Assembly (NCBI GenBank): GCA_000934665.2
Contig: KZ538736.1
Span: forward strand, 1 to 50,415
Direction: 5' to 3'
Source: Catajapyx aquilonaris
Taxonomy: Eukaryota
DNA: 50,415 bases
The notes beneath the pieces were generated by a model. The model made no database searches, had not been told where the DNA came from, and saw nothing but the letters and a program-made list of their open reading frames with translations. The first letter of the stretch is position 1, and each line of letters starts with the position of its first letter. The translations under genes and the position numbers were made by a program. Of this stretch, positions 19,509 to 26,327 are shown in pieces.

Positions 19509-19938
19509 TTATATTACATCAACATCACATGGTGGAAGGGAGTTCTCATTCTCCATTCCACCGGTCATACAAGAATAGTACTGATTTATTAAAGGGTTAA
19601 TTTCTTCATCGCTCACTTTGTCACAGAGAAAGTATTTGATTGCCAAGTTGTCCCAGTTGTCTCCTACAAACTTCTCCCCATTATTCTGACAAATTCCCCA
19701 TTCATACTGTCTCATTGACTCTTCTAGACTTACAAAATCCAACAAGTATGAGCACACATGGTAAAGTGTGTCTCTTGACTTAGGGTTGAGATGCAAACTC
19801 TTTTTGAAGTGATACATGCAGGGTCCAAGTGCTTCTTTACTTTTCAGAGCCATTTCTCGCTCTACTCGGGCAAGAAAAAGAGTCTGAAGTGTGTTTTCAG
19901 GAGCAGCCTTTGAGCTTTCTAGTAGAATGGAGTGCACT
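19509..19938 (-). CDS. FANCG-like terminal coding exon 5
   Basis: VHSILLESSKAAPENTLQTLFLARVERE...[23 protein letters not shown]...DVDVI*; the phase-2 junction matches exon 4. Confidence 0.85.
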
Positions 19939-23854: not shown

Positions 23855-26327
23855 TCATACCCCGTTATCAGCCATCGGCTCTTTAGGGGGGAAGTTTGTT
23901 TTGCCTGGAACTCTTTGCTTTTCATTTTACTGTGCTCTTTGGGATAGGATAGGGATGGAAGGAAGCGGCTGTGGCCTAATAATTACGAAAGCAACTCCGG
24001 AATTTTCCTGGAAGGACCGTGGGAAACCACAGGAAACCACGGTCAGAGTTGCCGGCCCCGGGATTTGATCCCAGGACCTCCCGATTATTAGCAGTCGGAC
24101 ACCATATCCCCTTCTCCAAACTGCTTCGGTTACAGTACTGTATTGTTGGTCTCTGCACTCCCTGAAATTCTCTAGATGTTGTCGCAATACACTACTGCAT
24201 GTATTCAAAACAATAAAGGGACCTAATGAACTTCAACCTGGAACTTCCTCGTAAATGTGTATGAAATGTTTCAAATACGTGCCATAAAAACAGCAATATT
24301 AGAATGGCACATGGGAAAACTATGAAATTTTGGAACTTATCCCATTCAATTACATTATAATTTGGCCTCGTTTTACGAAGTTTCCCTTTATGACCCTGTT
24401 GTCTGGAAGCTAACTCCATCATGAAACAGGGGCTACCTGTATATTTTTCAAATGGATAGTAGGGCCCTAGAAAACACAATCATGAAGAAAGTACACTGTA
24501 ATCACCAACATAGGTCAACAAATACCTTGCAAGTGTGTTTTGATTCCTACGGTCTCCGGGTTTTAAGGATTCTTCTGCTTCATATTTAATCAGGTGTGTA
24601 ACTGGCAAATACTGAAACTGTATGCATAACTCGATTGCTTCACTAAAGCAGCCAGCTTTCAGGATGGCCAATGCAGCCTCAGACACCACTTGATCATATA
24701 TAATCTGCTTAAAGGGTCTGGCTAAGACAGCAATGACTGATGTTTTCATGTGCAAATCATATTTGAGCAATTCTCGAAAATACTTTGCTGCACTTTGGTA
24801 CCTCTCCATCTCATAACATGTGCGGGCCAACTCATAGAGACATTCACGTAAATCTCCTTCATGTTCACCATGGACAACTAACAAAACCCTCTGGTGTATG
24901 TTGGCACAGTGCATTTCCTCTTGAGAAGACAGTTTCTGTAAAGAAAGAAAATCGCAAAAAGTATTGATATATTCTATTAGTTTTAATAATTACATCATAA
25001 ATACTTACTTCATATATCCACTGGAGGACAGGTAGCCGCTTCTCATTAGGAATGAATTTTGAGAAATGAGACCAAGCCAACAATTCCATTTTTCGATCAC
25101 TGCAATGGATTGATGCTGATTTTATCAGGCTTTCCCATCGAACACGTAGCAAATCATCATCATGTTCTTGCTGGCGAAGGCACCACAGAAGCCAAGTACG
25201 CCAAAGAATTACAGAGTTGGTGGCAGATGGCATGTCTGGTGGCACTACATCTGGATTCCTCAAAGCTGAAACAATTCAGTAGTAGTATCAAAATTCAGTG
25301 TCTGATGGTGGGCAACTGACCCATGTTAAATTTGTGGTTCTAATGACCACTACATGCAAGTGTTCGAATTAACCAGACAAGGACAATTAGAAGAGCACCT
25401 TTTATATACGTAGTGATGGACAACTCCGTTTCACTGCTGTCTTTGTAGGGATCTATTGTTGTTTGTTCATTGGCATAAAGTTTGCACACTTCTATTGCCA
25501 TCTCAACCATATCATATTGAAACTCTTGCTCAAACATAAATAAATGAAACAATGGATCCTGCTTTGTTGGTGGGTTTGCACTCACATCTTTCACCCTGTG
25601 TAACTCGTTTATCAGAATGCCATAATCTGCATTGATGCAGCTCTCTATGTGATGCAAGATGCACATGGCATAAATTTGGACAAACACTATGCGACATGAA
25701 AGTGACTTATAATAAACAAAGTGGTCAGGTTTCAATATGATGCTGTAAAAAGGGCTCCCTTTCATCGTACTACCCACAGTGTTGAAAGACCTCTTTTCAC
25801 TCCCTAAACCAACGGTGGTCATACCACCACTTGAGTGACTCAATAACTGTAGAACTCTTTCATACAGATGATCATTCTTTACATTGATGACAGTCCAAGC
25901 CATCCACAGGTAATTGTAGGCAATGCATATCTGCACCTCTGGGTTAATTACACCAAGTTTTCTCTGGCACATTTTTAAGAAAATGTAATCAAACTTCTCC
26001 AAATGTTTGGCATACTGGCATCGCCTTTCAACGTGATCTGGATTTTCCCCAATAGCCTACAATAAAATAAACACAATAATTAACTTTCATGATGACTTTA
26101 ATAATAATAATAATGGTGTAACTTACCATTGCTTCACACACAAACACATTGTTGTAAATCAAAAACTTCCAAGATACTGCATTTAATTGAATGCCTGACA
26201 CTTCATTCAGGCGCAAAGCAGCTTTCTCCAGATCATTTGGTTTTGTTGGTAATTCTCTCATCTTCTGGATACATGCAGAATAACATTTACGGTGGAACAA
26301 GTCCCTAATTGTATCAAAAGACATCAT
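19509..26327 (-). CDS. FANCG: 651-aa TPR-like helical protein, probable divergent Fanconi anemia group G (FANCG) homolog
   Basis: Exons 26127-26327, 25399-26056, 25009-25265, 24526-24935, 19509-19938 (1956 nt incl. stop), GT-AG, intron phases 0/1/0/2 all consistent. TPR-like segments: [67 protein letters not shown]. These resemble human FANCG segments in the same order (comparison from memory, no search run). The gene structure is more certain (~0.9) than the name. Confidence 0.7.
20209..20469 (-). mobile_element. tRNA-derived SINE, family C
   Basis: Homologous to 16216-16478; 14-bp TSD ggatttgaccatat (20195-20208 and 20470-20483). Confidence 0.88.
21549..21761. mobile_element. PIF/Harbinger-type MITE
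   Basis: Terminal inverted repeat (TIR) AGGCCGGTATC.ACGT.C.AG; TAA TSD on both sides. Confidence 0.75.
22202..22550 (-). mobile_element. tRNA-derived SINE, family B
   Basis: Body nearly identical to 3850-4084; 15-bp TSD agttttactgtatat (22187-22201 and 22551-22565). Confidence 0.9.
22979..23262 (+). mobile_element. tRNA-derived SINE, family A, inserted in a piggyBac MITE arm
   Basis: Family A head, (AAT)n tail, 12-bp TSD attggtaaaata (22967-22978 and 23263-23274). Confidence 0.88.
23367..23643 (+). mobile_element. tRNA-derived SINE, family D
   Basis: A box TGGTCTAGTGG, B box GGTTCAAATCC, tail agggccccgggccctatcacagggta(caaa)n, degenerate TSD aacttt.tcaaa.ta. Confidence 0.75.
23803..24130 (-). 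mobile_element. tRNA-derived SINE, family A
   Basis: Highly similar to 5807-6092; (TAT)n tail; 17-bp TSD tacagtactgtattgtt (23786-23802 and 24131-24147). Confidence 0.9.
24526..24935 (-). CDS. FANCG-like coding exon 4 (TPR motifs)
   Basis: KLSSQEEMHCANIHQRV...[26 protein letters not shown]...[19 protein letters not shown]...NTLA(R). Confidence 0.87.
25009..25265 (-). CDS. FANCG-like coding exon 3
   Basis: ALRNPDVVPPDMPSATNSVILWRTWLLW...RLPVLQWIYE, GTAAGT donor. Confidence 0.85.
25399..26056 (-). CDS. FANCG-like coding exon 2
   Basis: AIGENPDHVERRCQYAKHLEKFDYIFLKM...LSITTYIK; 658-nt open exon, phase 0 to 1. Confidence 0.82.
26127..26327 (-). CDS. FANCG-like coding exon 1
   Basis: MMSFDTIRDLFHRKCYSACIQKMRELP...NNVFVCEAM, GTAAGT donor; upstream acceptor at 26356-26357. 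Confidence 0.8.

Follow-up and report, generated by a model that had tools for sequence, protein, structure and literature searches.

A five-exon gene for a tetratricopeptide repeat protein in Catajapyx aquilonaris, plausibly a divergent FANCG

Has an arthropod lineage kept FANCG, the tetratricopeptide repeat (TPR) subunit that works with FAAP20 to keep FANCA attached to the core ubiquitin ligase of the Fanconi anaemia pathway? The question is raised by a gene on the minus strand, running from position 26327 down to 19509, in a stretch of 50,415 nt from Catajapyx aquilonaris (contig KZ538736.1); this whole stretch is referred to here as the window, and all coordinates are counted along it. A preliminary description of the window had joined five open reading frame fragments into one intact protein of 651 residues and had likened its C-terminal part to human FANCG. 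We find that the gene encodes a TPR-containing protein, and we consider a very divergent FANCG orthologue its most likely identity, with an even chance of being right. FANCG homology is plausible and unproven, as the searches run have neither shown nor excluded it.

At the level of sequence, the splicing of the five fragments holds as it had been described. Five minus-strand exons join through GT-AG sites with matching phases into an uninterrupted coding sequence of 651 codons (1953 nt), and the introns of the model fall after coding nucleotides 201, 859, 1116, and 1526 in phases 0, 1, 0, and 2, respectively (Table 1). Among the 5081 stop-to-stop open reading frames of the window, which have a mean length of 18.8 codons, 28 reach at least 110 residues and five of these are collinear, same-strand pieces of this gene; only one open reading frame, of 238 residues, is at least 200 residues long. 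Base use in the joined coding sequence depends on codon position (chi-square p = 2e-6; GC 0.47, 0.33, and 0.41 at the successive positions), whereas in intron 4 it is independent of it (p = 0.22). The exons are single-copy within the window, and repeats are restricted to the intron. So far as sequence alone can tell, the five exons make up a genuine and intact gene.

It seems improbable that the joined exons do not represent a working gene in this form, be it a recently dead gene, one with a mis-joined last exon, or one with missing upstream or intronic exons. A fault of this kind would suit the position of exon 5, which sits 4.6 kb off across repeats, the lack of a homologue backing any of the junctions, and the codon periodicity of the single exons, which is significant (p < 0.05) in exons 2 and 4 only and not in exons 1, 3, and 5. 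An acceptor-like TTTCTTCTTCAG at 26355-26366 on the minus strand, ~28 nt 5' of the proposed ATG, suggests a putative upstream 5' exon and makes the 5' limit of exon 1 uncertain, and neither AATAAA nor ATTAAA occurs within 410 nt past the stop codon (19100-19508, minus strand). Against a faulty model, each of the four junctions uses canonical sites and preserves the phase, the reading frame is uninterrupted over 651 codons, the periodicity of the whole coding sequence is strong, the exons are unique in the window with the repeats confined to the intron, and the TPR pattern goes on in exon 5.

Interspersed repeats that recur in other parts of the window make up one third of intron 4. Repeats were located at 20207-24377 within this intron and also at 3767-4231, with four inverted pairs of 86-121 nt and 87-94% complementarity. 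Additional coding exons within intron 4 were considered and rejected, because the open reading frames there overlap the repeats and a third of the intron has copies in the window. The intron also contains a trinucleotide microsatellite at ~23700-23870, which shows up in open reading frame translations as runs of poly-Y, poly-L, poly-I, and poly-N.

The nature of the encoded protein was assessed with Pfam, phmmer searches of the Protein Data Bank (PDB), and fold prediction, all done exon by exon. Pfam recognised a single stretch, 30 residues long in exon 4, and every model that matched it was of TPR type; the top model was TPR_2 (E = 5.6e-6) with 26.5 bits, 0.5 bit below its curated cut-off of 27 bits, and eleven more TPR-type models followed at E < 1. 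Exons 1, 2, 3, and 5 gave no Pfam family, and no exon gave a specific named one. The AlphaFold2 model of exon 4 (pLDDT, the predicted local distance difference test, of 71.7) contains eight helices arranged as TPR-like hairpins, and that of exon 5 (pLDDT 44.4) was unusable for a fold search. Folding covered exons 4 and 5, and the earlier characterization of the protein as helical is borne out for exon 4 only. With its TPR_2 match, its PDB matches to Fis1 and consensus TPRs, and the hairpins of the exon 4 model, the protein has at least one of the 34-residue helix-turn-helix motifs by which membership of the TPR proteins (Pfam clan CL0020) is defined, and it is a TPR-containing protein. Exon 5 carries on the TPR pattern through consensus-TPR matches in the PDB. 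The best explanation of these observations is a 651-residue all-α scaffold, the C-terminal ~250 residues of which form degenerate, unevenly spaced TPR hairpins.

Which TPR protein this is proved harder to settle, and the database results show generic TPR similarity only. In phmmer searches of all PDB chain sequences, for which the five exons and three sub-stretches were used as single sequences and matches were listed at E <= 10, FANCG appeared in none of the eight. Exon 4 retrieved Fis1 with E = 4.5e-4 and also designed TPRs, exon 5 retrieved consensus TPRs (E = 1.9e-4), and the stretch around motif 2 retrieved yeast Tah1 (E = 0.86); exon 2 had no match at all, exon 3 had chance-level matches only, and for exon 1 and the C-terminal tail any matches were no better than chance. 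The preliminary description had named FANCG scoring no better than generic TPRs as evidence against its reading; in this exon-wise form, which has little power for a protein that evolves fast, the comparison went against FANCG, with Fis1, consensus TPRs, and Tah1 among the matches instead. We assume that the solved-structure libraries include FANCG chains from entries for the Fanconi anaemia core complex; none appeared in any output.

The four motif strings on which the likeness to FANCG had been based are present in the window and collinear. Their similarity to the human protein was gauged by counting identical letters in printed alignments, with the human strings as quoted in the preliminary description. 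By this count motif 1 is identical to Fis1 at 9 of 25 positions and to the quoted human string at 8 of 25, motif 2 to Tah1 at 9 of 23 and to the human string at 10 of 23, and motif 4 to a consensus TPR at 6 of 21 and to the human string at 8 of 22. Generic TPRs and the quoted human strings thus fit the motifs roughly equally well, and the resemblance of any single motif is therefore at the level of the TPR consensus. The N-terminal 370 residues resemble nothing in the searches run.

Wider searches gave a similar picture. Exons 2, 4, and 5 found no relatives in word-seeded searches of large protein libraries, so that no alignment or profile could be built, and a full HMMER search with exon 2 over 1.84 billion representatives returned no match. 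Foldseek with the exon 4 model gave nothing below E = 0.1, the best match being a kinesin light chain TPR domain with E = 0.11, and FANCG was absent among the matches listed by Foldseek and VIA-align for this model alone. In the ESM Atlas exon 4 fell among generic TPR clusters (score 0.94), and exon 2 gave no usable match. As a control for the power of the exon-wise search with a conserved gene, xylulokinase exons from the same window readily matched their human counterpart (1.5e-38). FANCG, by contrast, evolves fast, the queries were single exons, and the HMMER filters drop weak matches; the negative results lower the likelihood of FANCG and do not exclude it. FANCG has no Pfam model and is covered only by the InterPro entry IPR039684 (PMC11061109).

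One independent hint comes from the exon-intron structure. In human FANCG (NM_004629) exons end at c.84 (phase 0), c.307 (phase 1), c.510 (phase 0), c.1076 (phase 2), c.1433 (phase 2, codon 478, the position of intron 10), and c.1480 (phase 1). Intron 4 of the present gene is a phase-2 intron that interrupts codon 509; motif 3 starts at residue 484, 25 codons earlier. In the human protein we take the counterpart of motif 3 to start at residue 454, an assumed numbering, and human intron 10 then lies 24 codons on, also in phase 2; under this numbering the two introns have the same phase and lie within one codon of each other. The assumed numbering agrees with 16 residues named in papers: Ser7, Asn20, Arg22, Gln86, Glu105, Ser171, Tyr213, Gln356, Ser387, Gln406, Lys491, Arg513, Asp530, Thr531, Thr550, and Trp599. 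For any one position, we estimate at ~0.02 the chance that a human intron of the same phase lies no more than one codon away. By our own estimate, the chance of one such coincidence with four introns tried is ~0.08, and the mapping was made post hoc on an assumed sequence. The coincidence of intron 4 with human intron 10, which depends on the assumed residue numbering, is a hint in favour of FANCG.

Several further agreements depend on presumed features of the human side. If, as we presume, two human exons end at c.646 (phase 1) and c.924 (phase 0), introns 2 and 3 would have counterparts there with the same order and phase; the boundaries c.646/647 and c.924/925 were not found in the literature searched. 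Skipping of human FANCG exon 5 has been reported to yield p.S171Vfs5*. By our own reading, the presumed c.646 boundary fits this product. Motifs 1 and 2 are presumably spaced almost alike in the two proteins (48 versus 49 residues), and both proteins presumably carry a short Ser-Leu-Pro...Cys-Asp motif within their last ten residues. The number of introns is on the opposite side of the balance, with four here and what we take to be 13 in human FANCG.

Taken as a whole, the protein is similar to FANCG (XRCC9; PANTHER family PTHR15254) in its length, 651 residues compared with 622 in human, in having its TPRs in the C-terminal half, in an all-α architecture with degenerate TPRs concentrated C-terminally, in the four collinear motif resemblances as quoted in the preliminary description, and, under the assumed mapping, in the phase-2 intron at the place of human intron 10. 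It differs in that the tests run gave no significant sequence or fold match to FANCG, in an N-terminal half that is unrelated by every measure, and in having ~29 residues fewer between motifs 2 and 3. Similarity to generic TPR proteins, on the other hand, is what the tools reported, in the matches to Fis1, consensus TPRs, and TPR_2 and in the hairpins of the exon 4 model. Those generic proteins (Fis1, the designed consensus TPRs, Tah1, and the TPR domain of kinesin light chain) are short or regular tandem arrays, whereas the protein described here has a single motif near the Pfam cut-off, irregular spacing, and ~400 residues of non-TPR helical sequence without relatives.

It is a serious possibility, if somewhat short of an even one, that the gene encodes an unrelated TPR scaffold, lineage-restricted or unclassified, in which the likeness to FANCG is that of the TPR consensus and the intron match is due to chance. 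The sequence matches in the PDB are all generic, as are the best Foldseek match and the Atlas clusters, and the failure of exon 2 to find a relative among the 1.84 billion representatives is as expected for a young or very fast-evolving gene. No other named Pfam family fits the protein either, however, and the length of the protein, the C-terminal placement of its TPRs, and the location of the phase-2 intron all suit FANCG; the further presumed coincidences (two introns, the motif spacing, and the C-terminal motif) would be jointly unlikely under this explanation, if they hold.

If the gene is indeed a FANCG orthologue, its product would be a non-catalytic adaptor. The C-terminal TPRs would clamp FANCA, the N-terminal helices would dock on the remainder of the core complex, and the core complex would in turn monoubiquitinate FANCD2-FANCI. 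We infer both the identity and this mechanism, and the mechanism is carried over by analogy from vertebrate FANCG. A stronger version of the same reading would make this the first FANCG to be recognised in an arthropod lineage, one that retains the FANCA-FANCG-FAAP20 module and, in all likelihood, a core complex like that of vertebrates; it would give a protostome for studying the chromatin-targeting arm of the complex. It requires both the FANCG identity and an arthropod origin to hold, and we regard it as doubtful.

Orthologues of FANCC, FANCE, and FANCF are reported from ants and bees, but from neither Drosophila nor Bombyx (PMC10085685). The retention of core subunits in sponges, ants, and bees with loss in model animals has already been published. 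Secondary loss in the model protostomes is thus already in print for other core subunits, and a FANCG found there would add one more member and not a new idea. Our literature search for FANCG in arthropods, much of it swamped by unrelated papers, returned nothing, from which we do not claim its absence from print. Were the gene FANCG, the FANCA-FANCG arm would join the Fanconi core subunits that survive outside vertebrates, and the gene would show how far this scaffold can drift while its gene structure is kept. Were it not FANCG, it would be one more unclassified TPR gene.

Table 1. Parts of the five-exon gene and sequence motifs within it, in window coordinates
Feature	Position	Strand	Remarks
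Coding exon 1	26127..26327	-	201 nt, 67 codons; begins at first ATG; donor GTAAGT
Coding exon 2	25399..26056	-	658 nt; acceptor TTGTAG, donor GTGCTC; ends in phase 1
Coding exon 3	25009..25265	-	257 nt; phase 1 to phase 0; acceptor TTTCAG, donor GTAAGT
Coding exon 4	24526..24935	-	410 nt; acceptor TTACAG, donor GTATTT; ends in phase 2; carries motifs 1 to 3
Pfam-recognised TPR motif	24756..24845	-	exon 4 residues 31-60; includes motif 1
Motif 1	24765-24839	-	model residue 405; exon 4
Motif 2	24624..24692	-	model residue 454; exon 4; TPR helix pair
Motif 3	24564..24602	-	model residue 484; exon 4
Intron 4	19939..24525	-	4587 nt; interrupts Arg codon 509 in phase 2
Coding exon 5	19509..19938	-	427 nt (19938..19512) plus TAA at 19511..19509; acceptor TTCCAG; motif 4, then 98-residue tail
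Motif 4	19743-19808	-	model residue 553; exon 5

Elsewhere in the window we observed exons of a xylulokinase gene (XYLB) at 7880-9232 on the minus strand, two of which, in the open reading frame 7880-8344, account for the match to human xylulokinase (PDB 4bc2) mentioned above. In these exons 37 of 52 and 35 of 49 residues are identical to the human enzyme (~71%), which is high for an arthropod. Exons encoding immunoglobulin domains (Ig_2, Ig_3, and I-set) lie at 45548-49424 on the plus strand, with certain domains split across two exons; among solved structures, one of these exons is closest to Drosophila Dscam (6.3e-17), with Robo2 and neurofascin next. With the xylulokinase gene and the immunoglobulin-domain exons, the window is metazoan.

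GC skew is strongly positive (0.15-0.22) at 28000-36000 and 44000-46000, where we saw no recognisable coding sequence. The observed/expected ratio of CpG is 0.60 overall; it falls to 0.33-0.45 over the three gene regions and reaches 0.7-0.93 from 30 to 45 kb, and TG and CA are in excess (1.23) in the window. This moderate, patchy depletion of CpG looks like invertebrate gene-body methylation and suits it better than a vertebrate origin, a reading raised by the xylulokinase identity, although the resemblance is not decisive. Finally, a tRNA-like sequence of 72 nt at 6016-6087 on the minus strand is a tRNA-Ser(GCT) according to ARAGORN and scores as a tRNA in Rfam with 39.7 bits. Serine tRNA has a long variable arm, for which 72 nt seems short, and the sequence may be the head of a short interspersed element or a pseudogene.

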